Origin: an uncultured Eubacteriales bacterium
GTDB lineage: Bacteria; Bacillota; Clostridia; Oscillospirales; CAG-272
Length of the DNA: 64,000 nt
NCBI GenBank assembly: GCA_934432725.1
Contig: CAKRZE010000013.1
Coordinates: 6,085-70,084 of the forward strand
Reading direction: 5' to 3'
Shown here: piece after piece, positions 32,862-48,175 of the stretch
How positions within the stretch are numbered: the first letter of the stretch is position 1
Layout of the letters: each line of letters opens with the position of its first letter
Notes under the pieces: model-generated
Databases searched by the model: none
What the model saw: the letters and a program-made list of their open reading frames with translations, nothing else
What the model was told of the DNA's origin: nothing
Made by a program: the position numbers and the translations under genes

Positions 32862-32895
32862 GTTTCTTTCCCCCTTTCTGATATTATTATAGCAC

Positions 32896-32966: not shown

Positions 32967-32981
32967 GCAGGAGGTTTCTTT

Positions 32982-33170: not shown

Positions 33171-33172
33171 GT

Positions 33173-33235
33173 CTGGAAATCGTGTAACGGCTAATACCCG
33201 TTCAAGAGTTCGAATCTCTTTCTCTCCGCCACAAC
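33173..33235 (+). repeat. att core, copy 2 (partial tRNA-Ser 3' half)
   Basis: CTGGAAATCGTG...CTCTCCGCCACAAC is identical to 28765-28827. It lacks the tRNA 5' half. Confidence 0.85.
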
Positions 33236-33282
33236 TTAGCAGGAAGGAACGGCTTTCACCGTTCCTTTTTGTGTCTGTCATA

Positions 33283-33531
33283 TCATAGTCCACCCAGCTT
33301 CAGCAACAGTATTCCAATCAGCAGATAAATTTCGCCGATAGTCAGGGCAATGAAAAAAAGCTTTATCTGCTCATTGACTGCCATGAAAAATACGGTTGGA
33401 CGGTCACAGCCGCCGAGGGAGGGAAGCACATGCAATTTCATGTTTGTCATGTATCCTTCTGCCGTTGTCGGTCGTAACCGTGTTTCTATGTAGCCTTTCC
33501 GGAATGCGTCATATGCTGTTTGCAATGTCAT
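33283..33531 (-). pseudogene. integrase remnant fused in frame to filler DNA and the tail of the small TM ORF
   Basis: The first roughly 40 codons of int (from MTLQTAYDAF) are followed by RPTVFFMAVNEQ and then IKLFFIALTIGEIYLLIGILLLKLGGL. Confidence 0.7.
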
Positions 33532-34586
33532 AATATACTCCTTATCTCGCCGCAAGGTATTGTCTGCCGAAGCGCCTTTTGAAGCCACCGGAGGAATTCA
33601 ATCGCATCCGGCTCTATTCCCGTGCAGTAATTTTCCTGCAGCCATTTTCTATATTTTCCTCTGCTGTTTATGCTCAATTTGTTGATGAATTCAAGCGCGT
33701 GGTCTGTTCTGCCCATTCGGATGAACTGCTGAATTGCGTACACGTTCGCGCCGTTCATGCCCTCTGTGTTCACGTTCTCCGGATTCCGTGTGCAAACTCT
33801 GATCTGCTGTATCAGGTCGAATATTTCCTTGACATACCGATCGAACAGCATCGGCGGGAATTCATCTGCCAGAAGATACCCGCATTTTGAAAAGCTGAAC
33901 TCCACGCGCGTCACACCCTTATATTGCTCTGCCTCCGGTGTGTTCTGCCGTTCCTTCTCTTTGTCGTATACCTTCACTCTGCCGTGTTGGCTTTTAGGGC
34001 GGAGGTATTTGGTATCATCTCCGGCAACCGTGCCCCATTTCATCACCTGTGTCTGTGCCGGTGCATCGAACACCACGGAATCCACTGTGATCTGATTGTA
34101 ATTGCTGTCCGTTCCTCTAAGATCATACGCGAGGTCAAATGAGGTTATTTCCGTGACTACCGCTTCATTGGCTGCGAGAAACTGCCGGATTACGTCCGGA
34201 ACGGTCTGTTTATTCGGATTGTATTCCAGCCACCATTCATAGGCGTTGTATGTGCCGTTCGGTTGGTACTGTCCACCGGCAAAGAATACGGAGTTTTCCT
34301 CTCCTTCCGTGTGAATCGTGAGCATGTAACGGTATGTGCCGATCTTGCCGCCGAGATTTTGGTATTCCTTGATGCTCTGTGTCTGTGTGAGAAGCTCCGA
34401 GAAAATACCCGTGTCGAATCTGTCTCCTGTCATTTTGAGCTGTTCTTTGAGTTTGTCTTTTCTGATCTCTCTTCCGGTTTTGTATCTGTCCTCTGTCACA
34501 TCCTTTTTCTCTATTCCGTATTGTTTCAGCTTGTACTTGATCTTGATCTTGTCAATGCTTTTTGAGATAGTGAAAAAGTGATTCAT
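33528..34586 (-). CDS. rolling-circle replication initiation protein, copy 2
   Basis: The translation is identical over 352 aa to the 30164..31222 product, although the DNA differs. Confidence 0.7.
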   Translation of the reverse strand: MNHFFTISKSIDKIKIKYKLKQYGIEKKDVTEDRYKTGREIRKDKLKEQLKMTGDRFDTGIFSELLTQTQSIKEYQNLGGKIGTYRYMLTIHTEGEENSVFFAGGQYQPNGTYNAYEWWLEYNPNKQTVPDVIRQFLAANEAVVTEITSFDLAYDLRGTDSNYNQITVDSVVFDAPAQTQVMKWGTVAGDDTKYLRPKSQHGRVKVYDKEKERQNTPEAEQYKGVTRVEFSFSKCGYLLADEFPPMLFDRYVKEIFDLIQQIRVCTRNPENVNTEGMNGANVYAIQQFIRMGRTDHALEFINKLSINSRGKYRKWLQENYCTGIEPDAIEFLRWLQKALRQTIPCGEIRSIL

Positions 34587-34686
34587 ACCATTTTTGGGAG
34601 GAAATCTGCCTTATTATAAGAAGGGCAGATTTCTTTTCTGCCTTTCCGCTCCCCCTGTCGCCCATAAAGGACGACAGGGGGAAGCG

Positions 34687-34860
34687 TCATCTGTCCTGCA
34701 TCTTCCGATACAGATACCCCCGGTATTGCTTCCGGTCTTTCGTATACTGCTTCTTTTCCTCCGGTGTGCTTTGGAGCTCTATCAGGTAGCGGGACTTCAT
34801 GCCATCGAATTCCGCATAGGGGGAAGCGCCTGCCTCATAGATGATGCTGTACGCCCGGCT
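34687..34860 (-). pseudogene. 5'-truncated gene of unknown function
   Basis: Protein-like C-terminus ...AYSIIYEAGASPYAEFDGMKSRYLIELQSTPEEKKQYTKDRKQYRGYLYRKMQDR. The upstream part is cut off at the junction with AT-richer DNA. Confidence 0.4.
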
Positions 34861-34861
34861 G

Positions 34862-35248
34862 TCAAATGTTGATCTTGAACAGATGACGTTGAAAGGCGGT
34901 ATCAAAACCAAAGCCGGTAAAGATAGAATTGTTCCAATTCATCCACGAATTCAGAAGTTTGTTAAGCAGCGAATGACCGAAACCGGAAAGTATTTATTTT
35001 CATACAACGGAAAGAAACTTTCTACAAGTCAATATTATATCTTTTGGAATCGTGTTATGGATGAACTTAAAATACACCATACACCGCACGAATGCCGACA
35101 CACTTTCCGGTCAAGATTGGATTCAGCCGGTGCAAATAAGGTCTGTATCGACCTGATGATGGGGCATAAATCAAAGGAAGTTGGTGAAAGAGTTTACACC
35201 CATAAAACTATTGAAGAATTGAAAAATGCCTTAAACCTTGTAAAATAG
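34862..35248 (+). pseudogene. 3' fragment of a second, unrelated tyrosine integrase
   Basis: ...KTKAGKDRIVPIHP...HTPHECRHTFRSRL...LMMGHKSKEVGERVYTHK retains HxxR/H/Y but lacks the N-terminal half and the first catalytic Arg. Its GC is lower than that of neighbouring DNA. Confidence 0.75.
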
Positions 35249-35668: not shown

Positions 35669-35697
35669 ATTGACAAATTTATTTATTTAAATTATTA
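35669..35697 (+). promoter_or_regulatory. candidate promoter of the toxin gene
   Basis: TTGACA, a 17-nt spacer, then TATTAT in an AT-rich tract about 90 nt upstream of the 35788 ATG. Confidence 0.4.
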
Positions 35698-35787
35698 TAT
35701 AATTGGAACACACGGAAGATATTGGATGTCTTGAAAAATGAATTCAGCATAGGAAAAAATCGATTTAAGAGAAAGGATGAAAAGAGC

Positions 35788-38700
35788 ATGAATCTGCCAA
35801 AAAAGCTGACAGCGGCAGTTCTGTCGGTCGTTATACTGATGTGTGCGCTGTTCTCCGGCACGGTATCTGCGGTTTCGGGACCGGAAATGCGGGACTCCGC
35901 GGGGACAGCTGTCAAAGGTGCCACGTACACGGACAGGATTATTTCAAACGAGAGAATTGCGGAAACCGGATCTTATGAAAGCATGCTTGAAGGCTGTTCC
36001 ATTCTCCGGTATGTTGAGGAAGACCGCTTTGCGGCATCTGACCCCATATATCGGCTGGAGGAGCTGGAGGACCTCAATTCCTATGTGTTCCAGAATCGGG
36101 ACGGCTCACGGACCGTGTATTTTATGGATGAAGCCACAAAATACACGAAAAACGGAAGGGTCGTGGAAAAAGATATCAGTTTGATTTCCGACAGGGAGGG
36201 ATATTATACCAGATCCAACAATGTCTCGCTGTCTCTTTCCAGGGATGCGCTTTCCGGCGTGTCGCTCGGTCGGGATGACGAGGAAATTACACTGATCCCG
36301 AACGGCACCAATCCGGATTATGCTACGGTCCGGAACGATGACGACACTGTCACCTACAAAAATATTTACGGTGACGGAATCGACGTGAAATATTCTCCGA
36401 CTCTCTCCGGGGTCAAGGAGGATATCATTCTTGCTTCCTATACCGGCATGCATTCGTTTTCCTTTACACTGGAAACGAAGGGCAAGCAGGTTTTCTGTGA
36501 CGGCGGACGGTATTATGTCGCGGAATCGGCAGACGCCGTGCTGAAATTCGATCTGGGAGACATTGTGGCGTTCGACGCGACCGGGATGCCCTGCAAGGGC
36601 AGTCTTGCCGTGGAGGAGCTTCAGGGCGGAGAGCGCTATCTTGTGACGGTCAGCGTTCCGGAAGAGTTTCTTGCGGCGGAGAGCACGGTGTATCCGGTGA
36701 CGATCGATCCGACTCTTCAGGTTTCTGATAACACTTCTTCAGGCTCCATTCTGGACTGCCCGGTATTTTCCGGCTATCCGAACAACAACCACGGCAACTA
36801 TATTTATCTGTCCGCAGGGTATGTGGATTCCTCTTTCCTTGTCGGCAGAATTCAGGTCAAGCTGCCGGGGCTGTACAACAGCCAGATTTATTCTTCTCTG
36901 AATGCGGGCGATATTACCTCCGTGACCTTTCATTGCTATGACGATTCCGGAAATACCGCCGCATATCTCAATCTGTATCCGAATACCTCCAATGCGTCAT
37001 GGACCGAAAGCAATCTCACCTGGAACAATAAGAGCACGTATACCACCTCGGTGAATTACGGCGCATCGGTCGGTCCGGCATGCTGGACAACGTTCAATAT
37101 TACAAACCTTGTAAAAGCGTGGAAAAACGGAACCTATACGGCAGCGGCGGGATTTACGCTGAAGAATAACAACGAGAGCTCTGCCGCGTATCGCAAGGCG
37201 ATCTTTTCCTCGGAGTACAGCGGAACAACCTACCGTCCGTATGTCTCCATGACGTACAATCCGGGGCTTTCCCTGAATACCGACACCCTGTTCCTCTCCC
37301 CCGGTTCGACCTATACGCTGGTTGCGACCACGCGTCCGTCCGGACAGACCGTGAGCTGGGAAACCACCAATACCTCAAATGTGACGGTTACGCAGTCGGG
37401 CGTTGTGAAGGGCGTGCGCGGCGGCGGAACTGCGACCGTGATTGCAACGTATATTGATTCAAGCGGAACGCGGCACACCGCAAAATGCGCTGTGTTTGTT
37501 ACGTATCCGGAAGGCGTTTATAAAATCAAAAATGTCAAGACAAATTATGTGCTGGACGTTCAGAACAACGGAGTGAACGGCTCCCCGTCCGTGCTGCAAT
37601 TCACCTCCGGCAGCGGTGTTACTTTCCTGAATCAGATGTGGAAGGTAAAATATTTGTCGGAAGGGTGGTACAGCGTCCGTCCCATGCATAATCTGGTAAT
37701 GGGACTGAGTGCTGCCGAAAGCAGCTATGCTCTGGCGAGCAGCATCGGCTTCACCGATACGTCCGCTTCGATCGCGGACCGCGCGGAGTGGCGGATCACC
37801 TGCCAGTCGTCGGGAAATCAGATCAAGCTGCTGAACAGAGGCAGCCAACAGTATCTTACCCTGACGGATGATACGGTATCCTCCGATAACCGCGTCGTCA
37901 CCGCTGCCGACAATTCGGCTTTGCGCACGCGCTGGCTGTTTGAGGCAGTGGAATCGGTTCCGCAGGGCGTGCGGATTTATGAGACCTCCAGCGCCGGAGT
38001 GTTCTCACAGACGGCGGCAAGCCGGCGCTATGCATCGCCCGGCACCACAAGAGGGCATGCGTGGCTGCGTCTGAAGGTGGTTGCGTTCAGCGCGGCAGTG
38101 AACACGTATTCCTCGCAGCAGTGGACCTCATCCAATACGTCTGTTGCGACAGTCAATTCCAGCGGCAGCGTCACAGCTGTCAGCCCCGGTTCGACGACGA
38201 TTACGGGAGTGTTCAGTGTCAACGGAACGAATTATCAGCTTTCCTTCCCGCTGACGGTGACGGAGCTGGAGGACGGTATATACTTCCTGCAAAACAAATT
38301 TTCCGATCTGTATGCCGATATTCCGGACGCATCGATGACGGAGGGGGCGCAGCTTCATCAGTGGACCTTCCACGGAGCAAAGCAGCAGCGGTGGAAATTC
38401 ACGCTGAAATACGATGGATATTATACCATCCGGTCTGTCAATTCCGGCTCTGTGTCATATTATATGGGTGTACAGGGCGATTCGACATCGTATGATGTTG
38501 CGGTCGTTTTGCGGAGTACCGATCTGTCTGACGGTACAAAGTGGACGGTCAGCAAAACGTCAAGCGGGGCATATAAGCTTTCTGCGAAGTCGGGCGGAAC
38601 GGGCAAGGCGCTTGCTGTGGCAACGCTCAATGCCGGTCAAAAAGGCGGGCTTTTGCAGCAAAGGTATTATGTCAATGATGACAACTATAAGGATGAGTGG

Positions 38701-39273
38701 ATTGCGCAGCCTCTGATATATGGTATTCAGACATTTCGTGAACTTACGAGTGAGGATATAAGGTTGATCAATTGCCACGGATATGCGATGATGCGGAATG
38801 ATGCCCCGAGAGGATGGGAATCTTCGTTTGTTTCGTATTGCGAATCTATTCCCCAAAACGGGATTATCGGATCGAACGATTATCCGGGAGTTATAAGACT
38901 AACGGCAGCTGCGTATGCGAAAATCGATTTTGAAAATTGGCTGACCGCCAATGGATATACGTGGACGTATGAGTCTTCGTTTTCCGGGAACGGGGAGAGC
39001 AATCCGTTAGAACCGAACCAATATCGTGTTGTGTTGAGAACGGGTATTCATAACGTGCAGAATGACAGCGGTGTGTTCGTGAAAGATTATGATTTTCATT
39101 TTTGGTATCAAACATACGATGGAAGATGGGCAAACAAGCACGGATTTACCGCACCTGAGCTGCTTCCGTTCGGAACAACGCCGTTTTCAACAGGCAGCAG
39201 CGGATGGAATTTGGGGTCTTATCCTGACTTTTACGACAGCCCCATTTATTGCTATATTATTACCGTCAGTTAG
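35788..39273 (+). CDS. secreted multidomain protein: N-terminal region, TWNN carbohydrate-binding-like domain, 2x Big_2, 2x ricin-type lectin, and a C-terminal Cys/His putative toxin tip
   Basis: Signal peptide MNLPKKLTAAVLSVVILMCALFSGTVSA. SWTESNLTWNNKS resembles the DNRLRE/CBM-like domain. Big_2-like SWETTNTSNVTVTQSGVVKGV and SSNTSVATVNSSGSVTAV. QxW repeats (NQMWKV, LHQWTF, QQRWKF, GTKWTV). The tip carries INCHGYAM ... DFHFWYQTYDGRWANKHG. Confidence 0.8.
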   Translation: MNLPKKLTAAVLSVVILMCALFSGTVSAVSGPEMRDSAGTAVKGATYTDRIISNERIAETGSYESMLEGCSILRYVEEDRFAASDPIYRLEELEDLNSYVFQNRDGSRTVYFMDEATKYTKNGRVVEKDISLISDREGYYTRSNNVSLSLSRDALSGVSLGRDDEEITLIPNGTNPDYATVRNDDDTVTYKNIYGDGIDVKYSPTLSGVKEDIILASYTGMHSFSFTLETKGKQVFCDGGRYYVAESADAVLKFDLGDIVAFDATGMPCKGSLAVEELQGGERYLVTVSVPEEFLAAESTVYPVTIDPTLQVSDNTSSGSILDCPVFSGYPNNNHGNYIYLSAGYVDSSFLVGRIQVKLPGLYNSQIYSSLNAGDITSVTFHCYDDSGNTAAYLNLYPNTSNASWTESNLTWNNKSTYTTSVNYGASVGPACWTTFNITNLVKAWKNGTYTAAAGFTLKNNNESSAAYRKAIFSSEYSGTTYRPYVSMTYNPGLSLNTDTLFLSPGSTYTLVATTRPSGQTVSWETTNTSNVTVTQSGVVKGVRGGGTATVIATYIDSSGTRHTAKCAVFVTYPEGVYKIKNVKTNYVLDVQNNGVNGSPSVLQFTSGSGVTFLNQMWKVKYLSEGWYSVRPMHNLVMGLSAAESSYALASSIGFTDTSASIADRAEWRITCQSSGNQIKLLNRGSQQYLTLTDDTVSSDNRVVTAADNSALRTRWLFEAVESVPQGVRIYETSSAGVFSQTAASRRYASPGTTRGHAWLRLKVVAFSAAVNTYSSQQWTSSNTSVATVNSSGSVTAVSPGSTTITGVFSVNGTNYQLSFPLTVTELEDGIYFLQNKFSDLYADIPDASMTEGAQLHQWTFHGAKQQRWKFTLKYDGYYTIRSVNSGSVSYYMGVQGDSTSYDVAVVLRSTDLSDGTKWTVSKTSSGAYKLSAKSGGTGKALAVATLNAGQKGGLLQQRYYVNDDNYKDEWIAQPLIYGIQTFRELTSEDIRLINCHGYAMMRNDAPRGWESSFVSYCESIPQNGIIGSNDYPGVIRLTAAAYAKIDFENWLTANGYTWTYESSFSGNGESNPLEPNQYRVVLRTGIHNVQNDSGVFVKDYDFHFWYQTYDGRWANKHGFTAPELLPFGTTPFSTGSSGWNLGSYPDFYDSPIYCYIITVS
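38525..38701 (+). repeat. 177-bp scaffold-tail 'handle', copy 1 (in the main gene)
   Basis: Near-identical to 40182-40358, and to 43119-43258 (first 140 bp only). It encodes LSDGTKWTVSKTSSGAYKLSAKSGGTGKALAVATLNAGQKGGLLQQRYYVNDDNYKDEW. Confidence 0.9.
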
Positions 39274-39284
39274 GAGGGGACAGT

Positions 39285-40088
39285 ATGAAGAAACGGCTGT
39301 TGATCATAGTGGGCGTTTGTTTGCTGGTGGCGATTCTTGCTGGGGGGATTACTATATATAATATTATGAAGCCGGAGAAGGTTCCCTCAAGGTGCGCTGA
39401 AATTATCAATTCTTTTGCCGGGAAAGAGTCGGTCAGACTTGAAGATTTGACGGAATATAGCGGCAGGGACTTTGTTACATTTCATGTTGACAGAGGTGAG
39501 TTTCTTCCATCGGGGCGCGGTGCACCCCTGCTGTCTTATCAGGATGACGATATGCCGATAGAACGGTTGGAACGCATAGATAAGAATACCGTTTGCGTCG
39601 TGTATAAACTGTATTATTATGCGGATGTGGAAGGTGATATAAAAAAAACTGCCTATGTATGCGTACTGTTTAAACGGGAGGAATGGATAAGCGAGGATAA
39701 AAAGCAGACTGGTGAACATTGGTTTAAAACCGGAGAATACTATTGTTTTCATCAGCATGTGCTTTCTTCCGATGCATACAAGGACATTCAGGCGGGGGAT
39801 TCACTTCAGCGTGTTGTCGATATTGATGACAGTTTGCTGATCGACTGGGACCCGCAAAATTATTTCCTTATAACATATCAGCTTTTGTCGGACGGAATCA
39901 TGGCATGGTATTTTAATGCAGGATTGCCTGAAGATGCCCCCTTTGAAGTGTCGGAGTACAAACTGATCGAAAAAACTTTCTATCGCTTCGGAACGGACTG
40001 GACAACGTTAAAGAAGCATTTTCCGTATGGTTCTGTATCTGACGCGAAAACACTTCGGGCAATTGGAAGGCTGATTGAAAAAGGATAA
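39285..40088 (+). CDS. membrane-anchored immunity-like protein (Imm1)
   Basis: ATG lies 11 nt after the toxin stop, with GGAGG upstream. N-terminal TM helix MKKRLLIIVGVCLLVAILAGGITIY. 267 aa with no recognisable domain. Confidence 0.6.
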   Translation: MKKRLLIIVGVCLLVAILAGGITIYNIMKPEKVPSRCAEIINSFAGKESVRLEDLTEYSGRDFVTFHVDRGEFLPSGRGAPLLSYQDDDMPIERLERIDKNTVCVVYKLYYYADVEGDIKKTAYVCVLFKREEWISEDKKQTGEHWFKTGEYYCFHQHVLSSDAYKDIQAGDSLQRVVDIDDSLLIDWDPQNYFLITYQLLSDGIMAWYFNAGLPEDAPFEVSEYKLIEKTFYRFGTDWTTLKKHFPYGSVSDAKTLRAIGRLIEKG

Positions 40089-40090
40089 TT

Positions 40091-41056
40091 TTGCGGCTGT
40101 TAAGAGATGTACAGGATACTCTTCCGGTGGCAGGCATGAATACCTGTCACCGGAGAGCCTCCGCATGGACAGGCTCACTTTTGTCTGACGGCACAAAGTG
40201 GACGGTCAGCAAAACGTCAAGCGGGGCGTATAAGCTTTCTGCGAAGTCGGGCGGAACGGGCAAGGCGCTTGCCGTGGCAACACTCAATGCCGGTCAAAAA
40301 GGCGGGCTTTTGCAGCAAAGGTATTATGTCAATGATGACAACTATAAGGATGAGTGGAATCTGAAGCGATTGTCGCTTACATATGTTAATTATTTTGATT
40401 CTACATTGGTCGGGGATACAAAAAGACTTGGTTATGTGACGGAAGCAAATGACTTTTTGCGAATCGTATTGTCCAGACTGTGTGATGTTTCGGTGACGGG
40501 TAAGGCTCCGGAAAGATATGAAGGTATAGCGGATGGTTGTCTCCCGTCTACGCTGCCATGCACTTGCTATAATGATTGTGAGAAGCATCATAAAAATATA
40601 GGTAAAATATCGGACCAGCTGTATAATGCCGGAGTGGCTCCAAAATATCGGTATGTGCTGTGGACCAACAGAATTAGTACGGCATATTGTGCCAAAAGAA
40701 ATGGAGTACATACCCCTATGACCGGCGTGCTTGCTGTTACAGTTAATTATAGACCCGTTATACATTTTCTGACTCTTAACAATGCGCGTGATGATGATCT
40801 GAAGGCGTTTATGGCGATTACGCTTTTGCATGAAACTGCGCATACATTTTCTATGCCTGAAGTTTACAATGTGCCCGGTCACGATGTGGCGAATGGCTTT
40901 GTATGTGTATTTGTATGTGTAATGGAGGTATTTGAACAGGAATATGCGTTGGATTTTTATCAAAAAATCCTGAACGGTACTGCGGAACCTTTTTGTGCAT
41001 CGTGTAAAACACAATTTGTGTCGAGGGTATTGAATTATATTGCAAGTGCAGAGTAG
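40091..41056 (+). CDS. orphan toxin tip: scaffold handle fused to an HExxH metallopeptidase-like domain; no own signal peptide or RBS
   Basis: 40182-40358 repeats the main-gene handle. From 40359 the domain is different and carries LLHETAHTF...GHD. The track start (TTG at 40091) has no SD. Confidence 0.6.
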   Translation: MRLLRDVQDTLPVAGMNTCHRRASAWTGSLLSDGTKWTVSKTSSGAYKLSAKSGGTGKALAVATLNAGQKGGLLQQRYYVNDDNYKDEWNLKRLSLTYVNYFDSTLVGDTKRLGYVTEANDFLRIVLSRLCDVSVTGKAPERYEGIADGCLPSTLPCTCYNDCEKHHKNIGKISDQLYNAGVAPKYRYVLWTNRISTAYCAKRNGVHTPMTGVLAVTVNYRPVIHFLTLNNARDDDLKAFMAITLLHETAHTFSMPEVYNVPGHDVANGFVCVFVCVMEVFEQEYALDFYQKILNGTAEPFCASCKTQFVSRVLNYIASAE

Positions 41057-41065
41057 GAGGAAAAT

Positions 41066-41920
41066 ATGAAAAAAATATGCGGTATAGTGGGAGTAATTCT
41101 TTCTGCGCTTCTGCTGACAGGAGGTGGGAATGCGGGGGCAAGAGGATATGTTAAGGTTGTTGGGGATTCCTGGTATCTTGTAGTGCCTGAGTATATTCCT
41201 AAAGCAAAAGATGGGATGGAGGGATGTTGTTTATTTGTTCCCGAACTCAGATTTGATTCTTTGGAGGAATTTGTCGATACGGTTAAAAATCAGGATTTCA
41301 GTGAGGATCAGCTTTCCGCTGCAAAGTATCTCTTTGGACCGGAGGAGCAAAATGGATTTCGGATATGCAACATGGACAAGATATATGCGCCGAGACTTCC
41401 GTCCGGTATGAAAATCAACTGGGTGATTTGGGAAGGTCAGAATTATTCATTTTATTTTTCATCGGAGAATACTCGTACTACGGGTGTAATTTCTGTTCTG
41501 AACGATGATGATATTCAGGCTGACAAAATGTTTTCGTATCAATACAGACTGAAAGGCTTTGGCGCAGAGGTACTGGAGGAAATATATGATGACGGGGAAA
41601 GAACAGAAGTGATTTTTTCAAATGAATCCGGGAAATACAAATGGACTACATATGCTGTTGAAAGACGGATGACAGACTTTGACGGCAGAACCGTTACGGC
41701 TCAATGTCGCATTGCGGCACGTTATTGTTTGCAGCCTTACGGCAAATACATAGGGTTTGGGAAGACAGGTCTGAGGGGGGTGGAAATGTATGTGGAAAGC
41801 GATGTGCTGAATTATTATATCTGCATAGATAATTTTCCGCCTGAGATGACTGATGAATGGCTTTCGGAATTTGGATTGGAAGCGTATCGCAAGAATTGCG
41901 GAACAAACGCTCCTGTGTAA
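41066..41920 (+). CDS. exported immunity-like protein (Imm2)
   Basis: ATG lies 9 nt after the orphan stop, with GGAGG upstream. Signal peptide MKKICGIVGVILSALLLTGGGNAGA. 284 aa. Confidence 0.6.
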   Translation: MKKICGIVGVILSALLLTGGGNAGARGYVKVVGDSWYLVVPEYIPKAKDGMEGCCLFVPELRFDSLEEFVDTVKNQDFSEDQLSAAKYLFGPEEQNGFRICNMDKIYAPRLPSGMKINWVIWEGQNYSFYFSSENTRTTGVISVLNDDDIQADKMFSYQYRLKGFGAEVLEEIYDDGERTEVIFSNESGKYKWTTYAVERRMTDFDGRTVTAQCRIAARYCLQPYGKYIGFGKTGLRGVEMYVESDVLNYYICIDNFPPEMTDEWLSEFGLEAYRKNCGTNAPV

Positions 41921-41931
41921 ATGTCCGGTAT

Positions 41932-42207
41932 AGCAATCCGTTAGAACCGAACCAATATCGTGTTGTGTTGAGAACGGGTATTCATAACGTGCAGAATGAC
42001 AACGGTGTGTTCGTGAAAGATTATGATTTTCATTTTTGGTATCAAACATACGATGGAAGATGGGCAAACAAGCACGGATTTACCGCACCTGAGCTGCTTC
42101 CGTTCGGAACAACGCCGTTTTCAACAGGCAGCAGCGGATGGAATTTGGGGTCTTATCCTGACTTTTACGACAGCCCCATTTATTGCTATATTATTACCGT
42201 CAGTTAG
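41932..42207 (+). pseudogene. 3' remnant (last 91 codons) of the Cys/His toxin tip
   Basis: Near-identical to 38998-39273 with one amino-acid difference (S to N). It lacks the NCHG half of the domain. Confidence 0.75.
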
Positions 42208-42218
42208 GAGGGGACAGT

Positions 42219-43025
42219 ATGAAGAAACGGCTGTTGATCATAGTGGGCGTTTGTTTGCTGGTGGCGATTCTTGCTGGAGGGATTACTATATATAATATTA
42301 TGAAACCGGAGAAGGTTCCCTCAAGGTGCGCTGAAATTATCAATTCTTTTGCCGGGAAAGAGCCGGTCAGACTTGAAGATTTGACGGAATATAGCGGCAG
42401 CGATTTTGTTTTTTTTCATCATGGCAGGGGGGTGCGTCCCCCCCTGTCGGGTTTCTGCTACCCCCTGCTGTTTCAACAGGATGAGGATATGCCGATAGAA
42501 CGGTTGGAACGCATAGATAAGAATACTGTTTGCGTCGTGTATAAACTGTATTATTATGCGGATGTGGAAGGTGATATAAAAAAGACTGCCTATGTATGCG
42601 TACTGTTTAAACGGGAGGAATGGATAAGCGAGGATAAAAAGCGGACCGGTGAACAATGGCTTAAAACCGGAGAATACTATTGTTTTCATCAGCATGTGCT
42701 TTCTTCCGATGCATACAAGGACATTCAGGCGGGGGATTCACTTCAGCGTGTTGTCGATATTGATGACAGTTTGCTGATCGACTGGGACCCGCAAAATTAT
42801 TTCCTTATAACATATCAGCTTTTGTCGGACGGAATCATGGCATGGTATTTTAATGCAGGATTGCCTGAAGATGCCCCCTTTGAAGTGTCGGAGTACAAAC
42901 TGATCGAAAAAACTTTCTATCGCTTCGGAACGGACTGGACAACGTTAAAGAAGCATTTTCCGTATGGTTCTGTATCTGACGCGAAAACACTTCGGGCAAT
43001 TGGAAGGCTGATTGAAAAAGGATAA
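42219..43025 (+). CDS. membrane-anchored immunity-like protein (Imm1 paralogue)
   Basis: 268 aa, nearly identical to the 39285..40088 product except for a roughly 28-aa replaced patch and 4 scattered substitutions. Confidence 0.6.
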   Translation: MKKRLLIIVGVCLLVAILAGGITIYNIMKPEKVPSRCAEIINSFAGKEPVRLEDLTEYSGSDFVFFHHGRGVRPPLSGFCYPLLFQQDEDMPIERLERIDKNTVCVVYKLYYYADVEGDIKKTAYVCVLFKREEWISEDKKRTGEQWLKTGEYYCFHQHVLSSDAYKDIQAGDSLQRVVDIDDSLLIDWDPQNYFLITYQLLSDGIMAWYFNAGLPEDAPFEVSEYKLIEKTFYRFGTDWTTLKKHFPYGSVSDAKTLRAIGRLIEKG

Positions 43026-43118
43026 TTTTGCGGCTGTTAAGAGATGTACAGGATACTCTTCCGGTGGCAGGCATGAATACCTGTCACCGGAGAGCCTCCG
43101 CATGGACAGGCTCACTTT

Positions 43119-43258
43119 TGTCTGACGGCACAAAGTGGACGGTCAGCAAAACGTCAAGCGGGGCATATAAGCTTTCTGCGAAGTCGGGCGGAACGGGCAA
43201 GGCGCTTGCTGTGGCAACGCTCAATGCCGGTCAAAAAGGCGGGCTTTTGCAGCAAAGG
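43119..43258 (+). repeat. scaffold-tail handle, copy 3 (truncated, no tip attached)
   Basis: Identical context to 40182-40321. At 43259 it runs straight into AGGAGG plus the ATG of the next gene. Confidence 0.85.
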
Positions 43259-43270
43259 AGGAAATTTGAT

Positions 43271-44101
43271 ATGCGAGTATTGAAAAAGAGTGAATTCAGG
43301 ATTTTTTCTGCAATTCTGTCGGGAATCTGTATGCTTGTCTTTGCGTTGTCTTGCTCCGGGTGTGCTGCCACAGCCTATGCGTGTGATATTGTGGAGCAGA
43401 CAGAGGTTGATGTGGATACCCCGTCCGATTACGTTGCGAGAGGCAAACATGAAATCGGAATAGCCGCAAAGGAATATAATATTTCTTATATAAACAGCAA
43501 AAAAGATTTTTTCAGAGACGATGTTTGTGACGTGTTTGAAGTATTAGAAGATGACTCTTCAGACACGAATCGGGGAGGGACTGTCACTCTGAATTCGAAG
43601 ACCGGCGAAGTGATCGGCTTTAGAGGAATAACGCCTTTTCAAAGAATTACGGGATTTTCTTCTTTGACCAAAGAACAAATGAGGGCTGAGGTCGAAGCTG
43701 TTATGGGAGATTTTGTGGACTTCTCCCGGTATAATTCATTTGATGCCGAGGATTTTGAGGGGCAATTCATTGAGGAAACACTTCTGAGATGGAGCGTTGT
43801 TCGGGAAATTGAATACGACATCAGTGTTACGGTACATATCACAAATGACGGCGAAATTTATCAATTCAGCATGAATGACAACTGCCCCGATAATCTTAAG
43901 AAGCTCTCCTTGACAGAAAGCGAAAGAAACCGTATTCTTTTGTCTGCATTACAGAAGAAAACGGATTCTCAAATCACTGAGATCAAAGTGGAAAGTGAAA
44001 TGCTGACAGCTTGCAACGGAAAGGCGGCTGTGATTTACGATGTTGTTGTGACAGAGGAAGGCGGATTTGTCTGGAAACTGCTTCTGTCGATTACGCAGTA
44101 A
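43271..44101 (+). CDS. lipoprotein, immunity-like orphan
   Basis: AGGAGG lies 8 nt upstream. MRVLKKSEFRIFSAILSGICMLVFALSCSGC provides a signal peptide and lipobox. 276 aa. Confidence 0.55.
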   Translation: MRVLKKSEFRIFSAILSGICMLVFALSCSGCAATAYACDIVEQTEVDVDTPSDYVARGKHEIGIAAKEYNISYINSKKDFFRDDVCDVFEVLEDDSSDTNRGGTVTLNSKTGEVIGFRGITPFQRITGFSSLTKEQMRAEVEAVMGDFVDFSRYNSFDAEDFEGQFIEETLLRWSVVREIEYDISVTVHITNDGEIYQFSMNDNCPDNLKKLSLTESERNRILLSALQKKTDSQITEIKVESEMLTACNGKAAVIYDVVVTEEGGFVWKLLLSITQ

Positions 44102-44180
44102 AAAAAGTCCGATCACTATAATCTCCCTAAGAATCATTTGCGTTCCAATTATCAAACAGAATGGAATGAGGAGTGACAGT

Positions 44181-45011
44181 ATGAAACGGTGCGTTTTTCT
44201 GATGCTGGCGGTTCTGGTCTTTCTTGGGGTTGTTTCTTGCAAGCAAGAAAATGTCAATCCTAATACAATTTGTGTAGGTCCACCAACGTCAATGTACACT
44301 TCCTTTGATTTTGATTCCTATGACAAATTGCAGGAGTTGACAGATGAAAATTCTGATGCGTATAAGGAATTGGTGTCAAAGATACCTTATCAGAGACCGA
44401 AATGTCCCCTGTTTTTACCGACACTTACCGGTTGGGCGGACGGGACTGTTAAGTTAGCCATGCCGCAGTTAAATATGGAGAATATAGATTCCGGTCACGG
44501 CTGGTTTGATATATGGGATCTTTCGGCAAAGGAAGCATTTGACCTTCCGTCGATTAACTATAATTATGATGTGGATGGCGCCATTCTGCGAATTAAATTT
44601 TCAGATCCCTCGGTGCTCCAAAACCCGGAGGTGAGTAATGCAAAATCCTATTTGGAAGTGTGCTCAGCCATTGATTCTAAGAGCTACACACCGGATGATT
44701 TCAAGAGCAAATACTATTCAGAGGCATATGAGCAGAATGTGGTTTTAGCGGACGGAACGTGTGTCCGCGCATTGATTCGGGAGGCGGCACCCCAATATGA
44801 TGGCGAGAAGCCGGAGCAAAGGGTATCGCTGTATTATGATGGAATGCTGATAGATGCTGTCTGCTGGTCTAAGACACTTTCTACGGATGATTTTTGGAGT
44901 AGATTCGGCATTACCTATATCAAAGCCAAAGCGGATTCTGATGCTGACGGAACAAACTCTTCTGCGCAAACGTCCGGTATGACAGAAGAATCTGAATCAG
45001 GCGCTGAATAA
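44181..45011 (+). CDS. lipoprotein, immunity-like orphan
   Basis: GAGGAG upstream. MKRCVFLMLAVLVFLGVVSC provides a lipobox. 276 aa with an acidic Ser/Asp-rich tail. Confidence 0.55.
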   Translation: MKRCVFLMLAVLVFLGVVSCKQENVNPNTICVGPPTSMYTSFDFDSYDKLQELTDENSDAYKELVSKIPYQRPKCPLFLPTLTGWADGTVKLAMPQLNMENIDSGHGWFDIWDLSAKEAFDLPSINYNYDVDGAILRIKFSDPSVLQNPEVSNAKSYLEVCSAIDSKSYTPDDFKSKYYSEAYEQNVVLADGTCVRALIREAAPQYDGEKPEQRVSLYYDGMLIDAVCWSKTLSTDDFWSRFGITYIKAKADSDADGTNSSAQTSGMTEESESGAE

Positions 45012-45129
45012 TCTGCCTTGAATCATTCCAGGCGGACGGTGTTTTCGCCGTTCGCCTGGGATTTCCGTGTGGACAGGCACAATTTTGGCTGACGGCATGA
45101 TGAATCGCATAATTTCATTGTATCAACAT

Positions 45130-45817
45130 ATGAAACGGGGTGTAATGATGAAACAGATGGCGGCGATATTCGCCGGGTTTGCAGGCTTGTTCCTATGTGT
45201 TTGCCTGATCGGATCATGGAGGTGTGACGCTTCCCCGGAGCCGGAAGGGGGAGGCGGTACGGGCGGTCGATGCAGCCGTAATCGTTGACAGAAAATTTTC
45301 CATGTGGGCGGGTTCATATAGTGAATATCAAAAGCTCATAGAGGAAAATGATCTCGATGAGAAAATGATCACCTATGATAAGGTGCGGTTTTTGGGGGGA
45401 TTTGATTGCTTTGCGCTGCAGACGGTTCTTAAAAACGACTATTCTTTATTTTACATGGGTTTCAGCAACGGTTTTTCTCTGAATGTCTGCGGAAAGTCCT
45501 ATGTACCTGTTTATGGTGAATATATTTATGATGATAGTGATGTGCCGGTACTGAAGGACGAAGAAATCTGCCCGTGGAATATGAGAAAAATGAGAAACAC
45601 AAAGGACCGGGATCACGGGAAATATCTGTACAAGGGTATACAGTACAATTATGTTTGCGGAAGGCTGAATTCGGTGAAGTGGGAAAATGAGGAATATTAT
45701 TTTTCTTTTGGCTTAGATCATGGGGCGAAGTATCCGGGCTGCGGATTTATGAATGTACTGATGAATCTGCATACTGCTCCTGATGCGATTGCATACTTCA
45801 ATACTCGGGTGAAATAA
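45130..45817 (+). pseudogene. TM-anchored immunity-like gene split by a frameshift at a G5 run
   Basis: Frame 1 encodes MKRGVMMKQMAAIFAGFAGLFLCVCLIGSW... and stops at 45288. Frame 2 (45224..45817) encodes the protein-like body. Removing one G from 45247-45251 joins them. Confidence 0.55.
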
Positions 45818-46050
45818 AGGCGAAAGCGGGGAAGAGCTTCCTAATTGAGGCACTTGGTGGAGTTTATTTTTTCATTATAATAAAAAATGTTCCGAAACCG
45901 GTAAAAAGCGGGAACAAATCCTCCGGTGCAAACGTCTGATATTACGGAAGAGCCTGAAGCGGTTCCAATCCTATATCCCCAACTCTCCCGGCAGACGGTG
46001 TTTTCACTGTTTTGCCGGGATTACCCTTATCTGTGCAAAAGACGAAAAAA

Positions 46051-46134: not shown

Positions 46135-46668
46135 TTACACCGTTTGATACACGGTTGACCGTGTTTTACGGCAAAATTCAAGAAACAGCTCATGGGAAAT
46201 GGGATTTGGGGAGCTCATGATACGGAGCGGAATTGCCTGTCCGTCTTTTGAATAGGGAGGCTGCTCATAGCTTTCATCGGACAGGTGAAATCCGCATGTC
46301 CGGTAAAAGGCAATGCGCCGTTCAGCGGTCCGGTTTTCGGGAGGCTCTACCTCCAGTATGATCGGAAGCCCTCCTGCAAGCGGCTTGAATTGAAGGAGCG
46401 TTTCTTTACCATAGCCGCAGCCGCGCAGCTCAGGCAAAATAGCAAGATGTTCGATAAACCAAAAGTCCGGAAACGTCCAGTACGTCAGAATTCCGGCTTT
46501 TTTTCCGTCTGCATAGATTGCTTGCGGATGAAAGCTTTCACTCTCGGCAAGGATGCAGAGCATGTCCTTTCTGCTGCGGCGTTCCTCCGGAGGAAAAGCT
46601 GTTTCCAGGAGGGAAAACAGGAAATCCGCTGTGCTGCTTTGAATGGGGCGGAAGGAAATATTCATCAA
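46135..46668 (-). CDS. GNAT family N-acetyltransferase
   Basis: ...IEHLAILPELRGCGYGKETL... is the acetyl-CoA binding motif Q/RxxGxG. Confidence 0.85.
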   Translation of the reverse strand: MMNISFRPIQSSTADFLFSLLETAFPPEERRSRKDMLCILAESESFHPQAIYADGKKAGILTYWTFPDFWFIEHLAILPELRGCGYGKETLLQFKPLAGGLPIILEVEPPENRTAERRIAFYRTCGFHLSDESYEQPPYSKDGQAIPLRIMSSPNPISHELFLEFCRKTRSTVYQTV

Positions 46669-47106
46669 TTACAAACCGGTGCTTTTGCGGCAGCAAAAGC
46701 ACATCCTTTCTTGGGAGGTTCGGCGCGGCGCTTTTTCAAAGGGCTGCTGTCGTTTCAAGAGAAGCCCTGCGCAAATCCCTTCTTCGCCTGCTGACTTTTT
46801 CGGGTTCCCGGAGAAAAATGTTTCGGCACATGGAAGCGGAGCGGATGCATGCGGTTTTCGGTGGAGGAACGGGAAACAGATACAGACAGGCGCGTGGCGG
46901 CAGGGTAAACCAAGTTTTTCGGAAAGTCCGGCAGGCAGGGAGCCGGCCTGTTCGAAAAACATCAATCCCCCGAACGTGAAGCTGTTTCAGGTTCGGGGGC
47001 AGTGAAGGGAAGCGGCGCGCTTTTTGACAGTCGGTGTTTTTGCCCGGAATGGAGCGGGGCAAACCTGAAAACAGTTTACGGGAGCGCAGGAGTTGTGCCG
47101 GAAGAA

Positions 47107-48000
47107 TTATTTTTTGATCAGCGTGAGCAGATAATGTCCCGTATTGTTTTGTGAAATACTGACCATTTTATAATCTTTGGTCGGTAAGAGAATGATTTCC
47201 GTTTGTTCCGGACAGGTTACAAGCAGGTAAGAGCCGAAGGAGTAGAATCCTCCGTCAGAGAACAGGTCTGTGTATTCCTCCAGCGTCAGCTTACTGCGGT
47301 GCATGATTTCCGCATGGGGCTGACCCACATAGCGGATGTGCCACGGTTCATAGGGAATGCCGGTCAGGCTGCTTTTTCCCTCGGGATACCGAATGATAAA
47401 TCCATATTTCCAGGCATTCTGGCTGACATAGGTTCCCGCCTCCGATTTGAGAAAGGCTCGTCCGGCAAAGCCTCTGACATAAACATCCAGTGCCAGCCCG
47501 GTCTGATGCTCGCTGGCACCAACCTGTGCGGCAGTGTCTCCTTCCTTTTGGAGAATTGCCGCCTGCTCCTCTGCCGTGCGGTAGGAGCTTGAAATATAGA
47601 GCTTTTGCCCGCAGTCCTTCAATACGGCATCGGACAGATTGCCGAATGCCTCGGTTGCACTGCGGTTCATCATGACTCCGCTTGAGCGGTATTCGGCAAG
47701 CTCTGCGGAAAATGAATCGGAAATCGGATGGTCCCGGTTGATCAGCATGCCGGATTGCGTGCCGTATTCCTCAAGAAGCTCCGAAACCGCGCAGAAGGAT
47801 AGCCTGGACGGATCAAAGGAGGCTTCTTTTTTCAGAATATTGGTTTCCGGTTTCCGCAGCTTTTCAGAAAGCCTGTATCGGAAATCCGGCCTTCCGGCGA
47901 CAATGATCAGTGTGGAGAAGGTCAGAAAGGAGAGCAGCAGAAGCAGGAGCGCTCCGAAGCTGACGGCTATTTTCTTGATTTTTTTCATGACATGTTTCAC
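47107..48000 (-). CDS. D-alanyl-D-alanine carboxypeptidase, VanY/M15B family, membrane anchored
   Basis: N-terminal TM helix, SEHQTGLALD (SxHxxGxAxD) and EPWHIRYVG. Confidence 0.85.
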   Translation of the reverse strand: MKHVMKKIKKIAVSFGALLLLLLSFLTFSTLIIVAGRPDFRYRLSEKLRKPETNILKKEASFDPSRLSFCAVSELLEEYGTQSGMLINRDHPISDSFSAELAEYRSSGVMMNRSATEAFGNLSDAVLKDCGQKLYISSSYRTAEEQAAILQKEGDTAAQVGASEHQTGLALDVYVRGFAGRAFLKSEAGTYVSQNAWKYGFIIRYPEGKSSLTGIPYEPWHIRYVGQPHAEIMHRSKLTLEEYTDLFSDGGFYSFGSYLLVTCPEQTEIILLPTKDYKMVSISQNNTGHYLLTLIKK

Positions 48001-48175
48001 ATTCCTTCCTGCATGGCAGGATCAGCGCAGCTATGGCAGCTTTCGCAGTGTCTGTTTCAAAAGACGAAAAAGCCTGGCAGAATGTTCCGCACCGTGGGCT
48101 GCCATTTCGGAAATGCTCCGGATTTCGGACCGGAAGACGGAAAAATGGACAGGCGGCGCGGATAGTTACAGCGGA

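Follow-up and report, generated by a model that had tools for sequence, protein, structure and literature searches.

A lectin-scaffold locus in an uncultured Clostridia bacterium with the probable features of a polymorphic toxin-immunity system

The locus raises the question why the gene for a secreted sugar-binding protein is followed by displaced copies of its own 3′ region and by a series of genes for exported proteins. It was analyzed in a window of 64,000 nucleotides from an uncultured Eubacteriales bacterium. The first half of the array is formed by a 1161-aa gene, its membrane-anchored partner and a cassette of a repeated scaffold end (handle) and an HExxH domain with an exported partner. 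The second half consists of a 91-codon remnant of the first C-terminal domain (tip1) with a second partner copy, a truncated third handle and three partner-like genes (Table 1). We consider this probably a polymorphic toxin-immunity locus of an apparently undescribed family. The family would comprise bacterial competition toxins: secreted sugar-binding proteins that differ between strains in an exchangeable enzyme tip and in the exported protective partner exchanged with it.

Table 1. Features of the lectin-scaffold locus (positions refer to the window).
Feature	Position	Strand	Remarks
Promoter-like site TTGACA-17-TATTAT	35670..35698	+	11/12 matches, 5′ of main gene; consensus match only
Main gene (candidate toxin), 1161 aa from ATG	35788..39273	+	ORF and domain searches
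Handle copy 1	38525..38701	+	3′-most 59 codons of the last ricin domain; ends in YYVNDDNYKDEW
Tip1, 190 aa	about 38701..39273	+	invariant Cys25
Partner A, 267 aa	39285..40088	+	N-terminal TM anchor; immunity-like, cognate to tip1
ORF holding handle copy 2 and tip2	40091-41056	+	
Orphan cassette: handle copy 2 and tip2 (232 aa)	40182..41056	+	handle part 40182-40358
Partner B, 284 aa	41066..41920	+	signal peptide; immunity-like, cognate to tip2
Tip1 3′ remnant, 91 codons	41932..about 42207	+	98.9% aa identity; without handle or start
Partner A2, 268 aa	42219..43025	+	93% aa identity to A
Handle copy 3	43119..43258	+	ends at ...LLQQR, short of the DEW junction; tip absent
Partner C, 276 aa	43271..44101	+	lipobox-like leader (ALSCSGC)
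Partner D, 276 aa	44181..45011	+	lipoprotein, canonical lipobox VVSC; putative orphan immunity gene
Partner E	45130..45817	+	leader and body in different frames; probably a pseudogene

The layout given in the original prediction was matched almost to the base by the ORF layout and the repeat comparison. Partner A starts 11 nt past the stop of the main gene, with TTAGGAGGGG preceding the start and overlapping the stop, and partner B starts 9 nt past the tip2 ORF (TAGGAGGAAAATATG). The start-less ORF, described as 59 scaffold codons continuing into a different HExxH domain, was recovered as a repeat of 96-98% nucleotide identity (handle copies 1 and 2) followed by a HETAH domain. A second duplication of 1327 nt (38998-40321 and 41932-43258) showed 96.7% identity. 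The expected tip1 remnant and second partner copy were found at the identities listed in Table 1, the latter with a locally scrambled patch at aa ~60-90. Handle copy 3, likewise expected to be tipless, stops 12 codons short of DEW and directly adjoins the ribosome binding site (RBS) and start of partner C, whose RBS arises at the handle breakpoint. The length of these repeats (177-1327 nt) and their identity (96-99%) far exceed what chance would produce.

Three further lipobox- or TM-anchored genes had been proposed, which holds for C and D, but not for the frameshifted E. The hydrophobic leader of E begins at the ATG at 45130 in an ORF ending at 45288, whereas its body (45224-45817) lies in another frame, and a G-rich run is located at ~45243-45257. 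The identical frame break was found in an independent assembly, so that E is a pseudogene or else has an internal start and no signal. Partners C, D and E are regarded as putative orphan immunity genes solely from their position and export signals: no handle adjoins D or E, and a homologue search with C gave none.

The main protein begins with MNLPKKLTAAVLSVVILMCALFSGTVSA, including a Sec-type signal at aa 1-28 (judged by eye). The signal is followed by a conserved N-domain, a DNRLRE/CBM96 domain (aa 326-486), two Big_2 domains, two to three ricin-type beta-trefoils and tip1, with the Y..KDEW junction at aa 968-971. The search for scaffold homologues resulted in 216 sequences at E<=1e-5, which were 33-42% identical, mostly over 87% of the query or less, and more than 200 of which derive from metagenome-assembled genomes of Clostridia. 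The family is widespread among gut and rumen Clostridia. Among the matches listed, Y..DEW closes the last ricin domain in 59 of 120 homologues, and the tips of these 59 members are 162-379 aa long and can be grouped into at least 10 mutually unrelated clusters. This bears out the claim of a shared scaffold with differing C-terminal domains. The tips found in the family include Peptidase_C70, matrixin, Reprolysin_5, Amidase_2, PGAP1/alpha-beta hydrolase, Ntox44 and DUF3289. Tips such as Ntox44 would be expected to act inside cells, for which they would have to cross a membrane with neither an RHS cage nor a translocation domain.

Domain and motif searches of the main protein revealed no RHS/YD, VENN, DPxGL, LXG or filamentous-haemagglutinin (FHA) features, as had been noted from the sequence before. 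The accompanying view that the scaffold lies outside the described polymorphic-toxin families needs one refinement: a Big_2/ricin-lectin scaffold is absent from the domain lists of the polymorphic-toxin surveys compared, but the DNRLRE front is homologous to Rhs/WapA-type toxins of Bacillus. Residues 72-490 match ‘DNRLRE domain-containing’ proteins of Bacillus plasmids, one of which carries DUF6531 and RHS repeats with an 85-aa gene downstream. Because of this homology of the N-terminal DNRLRE module, the family is, judged by sequence, a WapA relative without the RHS cage and not an unrelated invention.

By sequence, neither the tips nor the partners matched any Pfam, NCBIfam or PDB family. 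Tip1 contains the motifs INCHGYAM and DFHFWYQ..DGRWANKHG. The top Foldseek matches of its AF2 model (pLDDT 89.6) were all papain-fold Cys proteases, at a weak level (E 6.5e-3, TM about 0.3), and three distant relatives have a Gln in place of the putative catalytic His. These matches weakly suggest a papain-fold Cys/His enzyme. The tip1 domain was found in 310 clusters. Among the best 150 of these 310, nearly all have it at the very C-terminus, and all ten tip1-domain proteins scanned were built on ricin/Big_2/CBM96 scaffolds.

Tip2 contains HETAH, His175, Met189 and seven conserved Cys; HExxH, His and Met are invariant. Relatives gave only sub-threshold Pfam Reprolysin matches. Its model matched adamalysin, ADAM and snake-venom metalloproteinases (E 8e-6, probability 1.0, TM about 0.5) and also fragilysin. 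In its fold class, the tip2 model is that of an adamalysin-like zinc metalloprotease. Protease-rich tips on a lectin scaffold would also fit host or dietary glycoprotein targets.

The variability of tips at the KDEW junction, predicted for related loci, was found with an exact breakpoint. Two related strains (L021 and L022) share 88.3% DNA identity over 4078 nt up to exactly the DEW codon, past which both tips and lipoprotein partner genes are unrelated. Unrelated tips were found on scaffold pairs of 75-89% identity (for example P0014/P0015, 87.8%), and for P0079/P0072 the scaffolds were 89% and the tips 33% identical. The tips are inherited together with their own partners, also in distant genomes, as had been expected: in L014 and L017, tip1 cassettes precede homologues of partner A (E 4e-9 to 2e-11), and in L016 and L018, tip2-type genes precede homologues of partner B (E 6e-6 and 7e-5). 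Orphan cassettes were seen elsewhere in part. L017 has an orphan array akin to the locus studied here, with four handle copies of 88-95% identity, one of them in a cassette of handle and TM gene without a tip, whereas L001-L003, L018 and L019 each have just one toxin-partner pair, without orphans. Truncated paralogues in tandem were found in L016. Export signals in the form of a TM segment at the N-terminus, a lipobox or a signal peptide were present in 16 of 17 inspected partner genes; at least one partner of the family, in L016, has none.

In the mechanism that we infer, the main protein would be exported by Sec, and its N-domain and DNRLRE/CBM96 module, together with the Big_2 and ricin-type lectin domains, would grip glycans on the surface of the producer, of the target cell or of both. 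The exposed tip would be an enzyme that attacks neighbouring Gram-positive cells at their envelope, from the outside; it is plausible that the tips act there and not in the cytoplasm. The current tip1 may be a divergent Cys/His papain-fold peptidase or amidase, and the displaced tip2 an adamalysin-like zinc metalloprotease. The partner encoded 9-11 nt downstream (membrane-anchored, lipoprotein or secreted) would neutralise its tip on the producer's surface. New tip-partner cassettes would enter by homologous recombination in the conserved ~180-nt handle ending at Y..DEW; older tips would be pushed downstream and decay, leaving A2, C, D and E as orphan immunity genes. Such an antagonism system with tips swapped by recombination had been proposed originally, and every comparative prediction that could be tested supported it.

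Near-identical repeats mis-assemble easily, and in a sequence of metagenomic source strain variants might have been joined chimerically, or the repeats might reflect annotation. This is extremely improbable: six assemblies, made independently from different samples and with different pipelines, show the same junctions. One of these (L008) spans the whole array with 99.66% identity over 13 kb, L009 covers A, handle copy 2, tip2, B, remnant and A2, and L009-L013 likewise match. Because the same arrangement occurs in independent metagenome assemblies, it is not an assembly artefact. Cargo or debris of an adjacent mobile element (a phage- or ICE-borne adhesin or lysin), with repeats from recent segmental duplication and decay and no functional cassette exchange, is very unlikely. 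It would fit the low-GC island at ~29-46 kb (0.42-0.55, mostly <0.48; flanks about 0.50-0.60), the upstream integrase (29304-30224), integrase fragment (34841-35248) and 1.29-kb direct repeat, and the recent 1327-nt duplication with its scrambled patches. However, family loci of other genomes lie in ordinary chromosomal contexts beside genes for ribosomal proteins or tsaE/tsaD, and no gene in the flanks shown was called as belonging to a mobile element. PHROG matches were absent for three of four upstream ORFs, the fourth (SprT-like, 31954-32667) matching phrog_6361 of unknown function. Furthermore, the main gene and partners A and B are intact with good RBSs, and the architecture is conserved across samples.

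A somewhat stronger, but still rather unlikely, alternative is that of secreted degradative enzymes for host or dietary substrates (mucin, IgA, plant glycoproteins). Here the lectin/CBM scaffold would dock a variable protease, amidase or lipase onto its substrate, and the exported downstream proteins would be inhibitors or maturation chaperones shielding the producer's surface. Proteases dominate the tips (caspase/CHAT-like, C70, M10/M12-like), tip2 is similar to enzymes that cleave host proteins (adamalysins and fragilysin), the scaffold domains are carbohydrate-binding modules common in CAZymes (PMC9971899), and the source is a human gut metagenome. Against this stand the handle-exact cassette swaps, displaced-tip arrays and strict tip-partner co-inheritance, which are hallmarks of toxin-immunity conflict and not of enzymes for nutrition, as well as the Ntox44, DUF3289, peptidoglycan Amidase_2 and lipase tips of the family and the N-terminal module common to Rhs/WapA toxins.

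As a probable toxin-immunity system, the locus is comparable to WapA and other Sec-dependent Rhs toxins of Bacillota (B. subtilis WapA; S. suis WapA-CT1, PMC12704120), with S. suis WapA showing the same front end of Sec signal and DNRLRE module for wall or surface association. Also shared are the polymorphic C-terminal toxin (a candidate toxin here), the immunity or immunity-like gene directly downstream and displaced orphan tips with a common handle. The lectin-scaffold family differs in having no RHS/YD repeats, DUF6531 or DPxGL autocleavage motif, a Big_2 and ricin-type lectin middle, the Y..DEW junction, mostly protease tips and exported immunity-like partners. By contrast, WapI is located in the cytoplasm, and the tips of WapA act as tRNases or nucleases.

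The Gram-negative CdiA-CT and Rhs-CT orphan arrays similarly consist of a main gene followed by handle-bearing tip/immunity cassettes. In both, identity is lost abruptly at a conserved short motif, VENN or DPxGL in those arrays and DEW in the present family. The present family comes from a Gram-positive producer with exported immunity-like partners and has no TPS/FHA, RHS, T5SS or T6SS. Extracytoplasmic envelope toxins with exported or anchored immunity proteins are known in the T7SS LXG toxin TelC with membrane-anchored TipC and the T6SS Tae/Tai amidase pairs. They resemble the action proposed here, but use T7SS or T6SS instead of Sec; the lectin-scaffold family lacks LXG or PAAR, and its tips and partners are unrelated.

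Lectins are combined with antibacterial proteins, presumably reading surface glycans of the target, in Streptomyces umbrella toxins (PMC11062931) and lectin-like bacteriocins (PMC6240691). UmbC also has a polymorphic C-terminal toxin and an immunity gene (PMC11062931), but its lectins are separate UmbA subunits on an ALF-repeat protein, an arrangement not found in the lectin-scaffold family, and LlpA consists of MMBL lectins without enzymatic tip or immunity gene (PMC6240691).

Tip2 shares with adamalysin/ADAM (M12B) and B. fragilis fragilysin the predicted fold (E 8e-6 to 4e-3, probability 0.97-1.0), HExxH, a third His and a Met-turn candidate. It differs in its 9-16% sequence identity, in a third His 13 residues after HExxH instead of in HExxHxxGxxH, and in being fused to a lectin scaffold without a prodomain. 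Tip1 resembles staphopain and bacterial Josephin-like DUBs/clippases in a Cys at a helix N-terminus followed by a beta-sheet with conserved His, although its match to papain-fold proteases is weak (TM about 0.3) and without sequence-family membership. As in staphopain/staphostatin, a dedicated inhibitor gene, putative for tip1, adjoins the enzyme gene; staphostatin is cytoplasmic, whereas partner A would be anchored outside.

The main gene of the toxin locus encodes a protein with a classical Sec signal at its N-terminus (MNLPKKLTAAVLSVVILMCALFSGTVSA), as determined from the ORF map and by motif inspection. An exact-sequence look-up returned no record of this protein. A DNRLRE/CBM96 domain was located at residues 326–486 (NF033679 DNRLRE in NCBIfam, 6.9e-21), together with two Big_2 domains and ricin-type beta-trefoils (Pfam). 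The last trefoil is closed by YYVNDDNYKDEW (aa 960–971) and is followed by 190 residues, referred to here as tip1. The HMM searches proposed along with the original prediction thus recovered DNRLRE, Big_2 and ricin in the scaffold, while both tips and all of the partners, the immunity-like genes 3′ of the tips, had no significant match in Pfam, NCBIfam or among PDB sequences.

The main protein had no RHS match in Pfam or NCBIfam, and the Pfam scan found neither an LXG domain nor TPS/Haemagg_act or FHA domains. As a positive control for the RHS search, a Bacillus RHS protein (L020) matched RHS_repeat at 4.5e-62. The motifs G..Y.YD, DP.GL (DPxGL), VENN, YD and LPxTG were not found in the scaffold by motif search. 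These results agree with the original prediction, in which no RHS/YD, LXG, filamentous-haemagglutinin or PT-VENN features had been recognised. ALF repeats and separate UmbA and UmbB subunits are likewise absent, the single polypeptide showing only CBM96, Big_2 and ricin domains (Pfam, NCBIfam), and no further ORFs of the umbrella type were present elsewhere in the locus according to the ORF map.

The last 59 codons of the final ricin domain, in the following called the handle, end at the junction motif Y..DEW (KDEW in the main gene). They are repeated at 40182–40358 with 96–98% nucleotide identity (repeat analysis), where they lead into tip2. A 1327-nt block (38998–40321) has a second copy at 41932–43258 with 96.7% identity. 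This copy yields a 91-codon remnant of tip1, a second partner A (A2) and a third handle, which is broken off 12 codons short of DEW and continues straight into the RBS and start of gene C. The same junctions were found in six independent assemblies, and the array structure is therefore real; one of these assemblies, L008, originates from the gut of a Hadza individual and matches the window with 99.66% identity along 13 kb.

Positions of the toxin locus genes and of neighbouring features in the window
Feature	Position	Strand	Characteristics
Main gene	35788–39273	+	1161 aa; ORF map
Partner A	39285–40088		N-terminal TM anchor; starts 11 nt past the stop of the main gene, GGAGG overlapping the stop
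Tip2 domain	fused to second handle copy, 40182–40358		232 aa; HETAH; differs from tip1
Partner B	41066–41920		signal-peptide gene, 9 nt 3′ of the tip2 ORF
Partner C	43271–44101		lipobox-like leader
Partner D	44181–45011		canonical lipoprotein
Partner E	leader from 45130, body 45224–45817		two different frames
200-nt repeat	28765–28964 = 33173–33372		
Tyrosine integrase	29304–30224	−	intact
1.29-kb direct repeat	30038–31327 = 33402–34691		97.8% identity
SprT-like ORF	31954–32667		PHROG match to one family, function not known
Integrase fragment	34841–35248	+	C-terminal
GNAT acetyltransferase	46135–46668	−	3′ neighbour
VanY-type D-Ala-D-Ala carboxypeptidase	47107–48000	−	TM anchor; 3′ neighbour
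ABC ATPase/FtsX-like permease fusion	48176–50947	−	923 aa; 3′ neighbour

ORF map, repeat analysis and junction sequences reproduced the locus as it had been described before, namely a main gene followed by displaced tips and exported partner genes. The three further anchored genes at its end held up for C and D, which carry a lipobox-like leader and a lipoprotein signal, respectively, and failed for the last gene, partner E, owing to the frame change between leader and body. The two parts overlap at 45224–45288 around the G-rich run GGAAGGGGGAGGCGG, and L008 is identical there. Partner E is either a pseudogene or a gene with an unusual start. Programmed frameshifting was set aside, its sole support being the G-rich run kept in one other assembly. 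A GC-rich, hairpin-forming element of 40 nt flanks this gene in two copies (45027–45066 and 45986–46025; 78% identity; CCAGGCGGACGG..CCGTTCGCCTGG). The copies may act as terminators or, alternatively, belong to a small palindromic repeat. Partners A and A2 (42219–43025) are 93% identical overall and differ in one dense patch at about residues 60–90 (RDFVTFHVDRGEFLPSGRGAPLLSYQDDD vs SDFVFFHHGRGVRPPLSGFCYPLLFQQDED). From its sequence, this patch looks like the product of compensating frameshifts rather than of point substitutions. A common family among partners A to E was not detected by all-against-all BLAST, and the homology search with partner C, a candidate orphan immunity gene like D and E, returned only itself.

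For the analysis of the family, a whole-protein search with a cut-off of E ≤ 1e-5 was used, resulting in 216 homologues with 33–42% identity, in which the C-terminus of the query was usually uncovered. The hosts are MAGs of Agathobacter, Lachnospira, Lachnospiraceae, Oscillospiraceae and unclassified Clostridia. Eight members analysed with Pfam have the common scaffold and a different C-terminal domain each; the domains seen were Peptidase_C70, matrixin, Reprolysin_5, Amidase_2, PGAP1/alpha-beta hydrolase, Ntox44 and DUF3289. In 59 of the 120 homologues listed, the last ricin domain ends with Y-x-[ND]-[ND]-x-x-[YF]-x-DEW, followed by a tip of 162–379 aa. Among these 120 homologues, the tips after DEW form at least 10 mutually unrelated clusters, the biggest being caspase/CHAT-like (21), C70-like (13), the family of tip2 from the window (8) and reprolysin-like (7).

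Close homologues with unrelated tips were identified as well. P0014 and P0015 have unrelated tips on scaffolds that share 87.8% identity over 961 aa; for P0079 and P0072 the scaffold identity is 89% and the tip identity 33%; in the pair P0010/P0035, with 80% identity, the tips align at 29% over 58 aa (E 0.11) and are essentially unrelated. Judged from these comparisons, tip identity is decoupled from scaffold identity. At the DNA level, L021 and L022, which originate from two samples with adjacent accession numbers, are 88.3% identical over 4078 nt. The alignment ends exactly with the final base of the DEW codon, past which the two are unrelated in the tip and in the downstream lipoprotein gene. 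Tip variability downstream of the KDEW junction had been set beforehand as a test, and this break bears it out. Close homologues that keep an N-terminal or central region in common and have C-terminal domains unrelated to each other, as found here, are a feature of polymorphic toxin systems in the sense of Zhang et al. (2012).

The AF2 model of tip2 (pLDDT 77) matches adamalysin, ADAM, ADAMTS and snake-venom metalloproteinases (E 8e-6 upward, probability 1.0, TM 0.45–0.55) and also fragilysin. In the family alignment, H158, E159, H162, H175 and M189 as well as seven Cys are invariant. Compared to metzincins/adamalysins (M12B), the fold match is significant, the tip in the window has no Pfam match and its third His is spaced atypically. 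Because of the fold matches and the invariant HExxH, His and Met, tip2 is predicted to be a metzincin-like zinc protease.

For tip1, the AF2 model (pLDDT 89.6) has an invariant Cys25 at a helix start and the conserved His of DYHFWYQ in the central strand (126–137). Papain-fold cysteine proteases (bacterial Josephin-type DUB/clippase, staphopain) were the only coherent set of Foldseek matches, which are weak (E 6.5e-3, TM ~0.3). In three relatives the putative catalytic His is replaced by Gln. By profile alignment, tip1 is modestly related (E 1.1e-4) to a second tip cluster found on these scaffolds, NCYAYA...DYHWYRQ..DG.WSHK.G. A relation to the Peptidase_C70-type tip cluster was not found using hhalign. 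An exhaustive profile search identified the tip1 domain in 310 representative clusters; of the 150 listed, nearly all have it at the very C-terminal end. Each of the 10 long tip1 proteins scanned has a ricin, Big_2 or CBM96 scaffold and none has RHS or LXG. From this distribution and the fold features, tip1 is probably a Cys/His hydrolase specific to the lectin scaffold.

In a word-indexed search, tip1 homologues were mostly short ORFs in which the tip is preceded by part of the ricin handle and by DEW, and by their architecture these are classed as orphan cassettes. The tip1 cassettes in L014 and L017 are followed after 12–13 nt by TM-anchored homologues of partner A (26–28% identity, E 4e-9 to 2e-11), and the full-length tip2-type genes in L016 and L018 by lipoproteins that are partner-B homologues (E 6e-6 and 7e-5). 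The downstream partner therefore co-varies with the tip, as in polymorphic toxin systems, and its immunity role is putative. A TM segment, lipobox or signal peptide was found at the start of 16 of the 17 partner genes inspected, the exception being L016:17047–17733.

Orphan cassettes sharing the handle of the main gene, a central element of the original prediction, were found in the repeats of the window and independently in L017. This unrelated assembly contains four handle copies (88–95% identity), comprising a tip1 cassette with partner, a tipless handle followed by a TM gene, and a cassette in which an M10/M57-like tip is paired with a lipoprotein. The tipless handle with its TM gene equals the state of the third handle and gene C in the window. 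In L016, a full gene with partner is followed by a 5′-truncated paralogue with partner and by a third copy.

Further observations were made on these arrays. In L016 (13654–17733), a lipoprotein and a signal-less 228-aa partner, mutually unrelated, share an identical end of 20 residues (LTLEQLMEIKTEPYVPEEN), which points to a further recombination handle located at the 3′ ends of the cassettes. L016 and L018 have common flanking synteny (tsaE-tsaD-rpiB, ribosomal protein genes) and different array content. In L017 (2453–3964), the M10/M57-like metallopeptidase tip cassette is followed by a lipoprotein that shares 72% identity, in its C-terminal 250 aa, with the partner from the adjacent tip1 cassette. 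This apparent mismatch of tip and partner is possibly due to a recombinant or dual-specificity immunity gene.

The toxin locus forms the right-hand end of a low-GC island (~29–46 kb). Directly upstream lies a rearranged mobile-element region (29304–35248). Its 1.29-kb repeat bears two 100% identical 352-aa ORFs without Pfam or PHROG match. Of the upstream ORFs compared with PHROGs, the SprT-like one matched a single family and the other three matched none. The genes downstream (46135–50947) have cell-envelope functions. In other genomes, family loci were found in ordinary chromosomal neighbourhoods.

The independent comparative tests support the reading of the locus as a polymorphic toxin system. 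In the proposed mechanism, the main protein would leave the cell by Sec and attach to surfaces or glycans via its DNRLRE/CBM96, Big_2 and ricin modules. The uncaged tip would attack the envelope of adjacent Gram-positive cells, and the producer would be shielded by the partner on the outer face of its membrane. Some family members have tips that would act in the cytoplasm, and their entry into cells is not accounted for by this mechanism. Homologous recombination in the handle would insert tip and partner cassettes and displace older ones; in the window, the tip1 remnant and A2 would stem from a recent 1.3-kb duplication.

In the main rival explanation, the proteins are proteases that are targeted to glycans and degrade substrates of the host or its diet, each with a dedicated inhibitor. 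This is consistent with the protease bias of the tips and with the lectins. The cassette genetics and the WapA-type front end do not fit it, nor do tips of the Ntox44, amidase and lipase types, and it is considered rather improbable. We give about even chances to the most far-reaching form of the toxin reading. In this form, Clostridia of gut and rumen would possess a large, so far undescribed class of polymorphic toxins that are exported by Sec, lack RHS and are guided by lectins; their exposed, mostly protease tips would disable Gram-positive neighbours externally, and surface-anchored immunity lipoproteins would protect the producers.

Interbacterial antagonism in the gut is understood chiefly for Bacteroidales (T6SS) and for T7SS/LXG toxins. 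Most toxin-positive gut Bacillota were described to be without any associated dedicated toxin secretion system (2026 study, PMC13556189). The family identified here has hundreds of members in MAGs of Lachnospiraceae, Oscillospiraceae and other Clostridia, and suggests a simple route of Sec plus lectin in which the tips act on the envelope and immunity is provided outside the cytoplasm. If this is true, it would be a delivery route for antagonism in the many gut Bacillota without T7SS or other dedicated toxin secretion. DNRLRE plus Big_2/ricin plus Y..DEW could then serve as a marker to mine new toxin/immunity families, and the family could provide new protease-inhibitor pairs. The glycan specificity of the lectin modules could set the target range, and a natural comparison with WapA would test the need for the RHS cage.

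In their survey of polymorphic toxins, Zhang et al. (2012; PMC3482391) mention RicinB as one of the accessory domains for adhesion. Neither the searched parts of that study and of other literature nor the domain lists from a subsequent systematic screen describe the scaffold as a toxin family, in line with the expectation that Big_2 plus ricin is an undescribed combination. The main protein is distinct from CdiA (T5SS), which has TPS/Haemagg_act, FHA repeats and a VENN junction. LXG/T7SS toxins have a helical LXG domain at the N-terminus, WXG100/Lap genes as neighbours and no Sec signal, whereas the main protein has a Sec signal and no LXG domain. In umbrella toxins, UmbC carries ALF repeats and UmbA (lectin-protease) and UmbB are separate, whereas here all modules are in one polypeptide.

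The front ~490 residues of the scaffold are homologous to "DNRLRE domain-containing" proteins of Bacillus plasmids (~26–29% identity). Using residues 72–490 in tblastn, Bacillus RHS proteins were found with E 2e-20 to 3e-14 among the 10 matches listed. One Bacillus plasmid protein examined has DUF6531 and RHS repeats with a small gene downstream. The plasmid collection contained no family member, only Bacillus RHS proteins with the common N-terminal module. The WapA of S. suis was described as Sec signal, DNRLRE, LysM and Rhs (PMC12704120). The Sec signal and N-terminal DNRLRE module of the Gram-positive WapA type are likewise present in the main protein, whereas the RHS/YD cage and the DPxGL motif (C-terminal aspartyl protease) of Rhs/WapA are absent. 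Owing to the front end common to Bacillus RHS proteins and S. suis WapA, the family looks like WapA with Ig and lectin domains in place of the RHS cage. By its domain architecture, the locus is accordingly classified as a Sec-dependent WapA relative that lacks RHS, is built on a lectin scaffold and contains new families of tips and immunity-like proteins.
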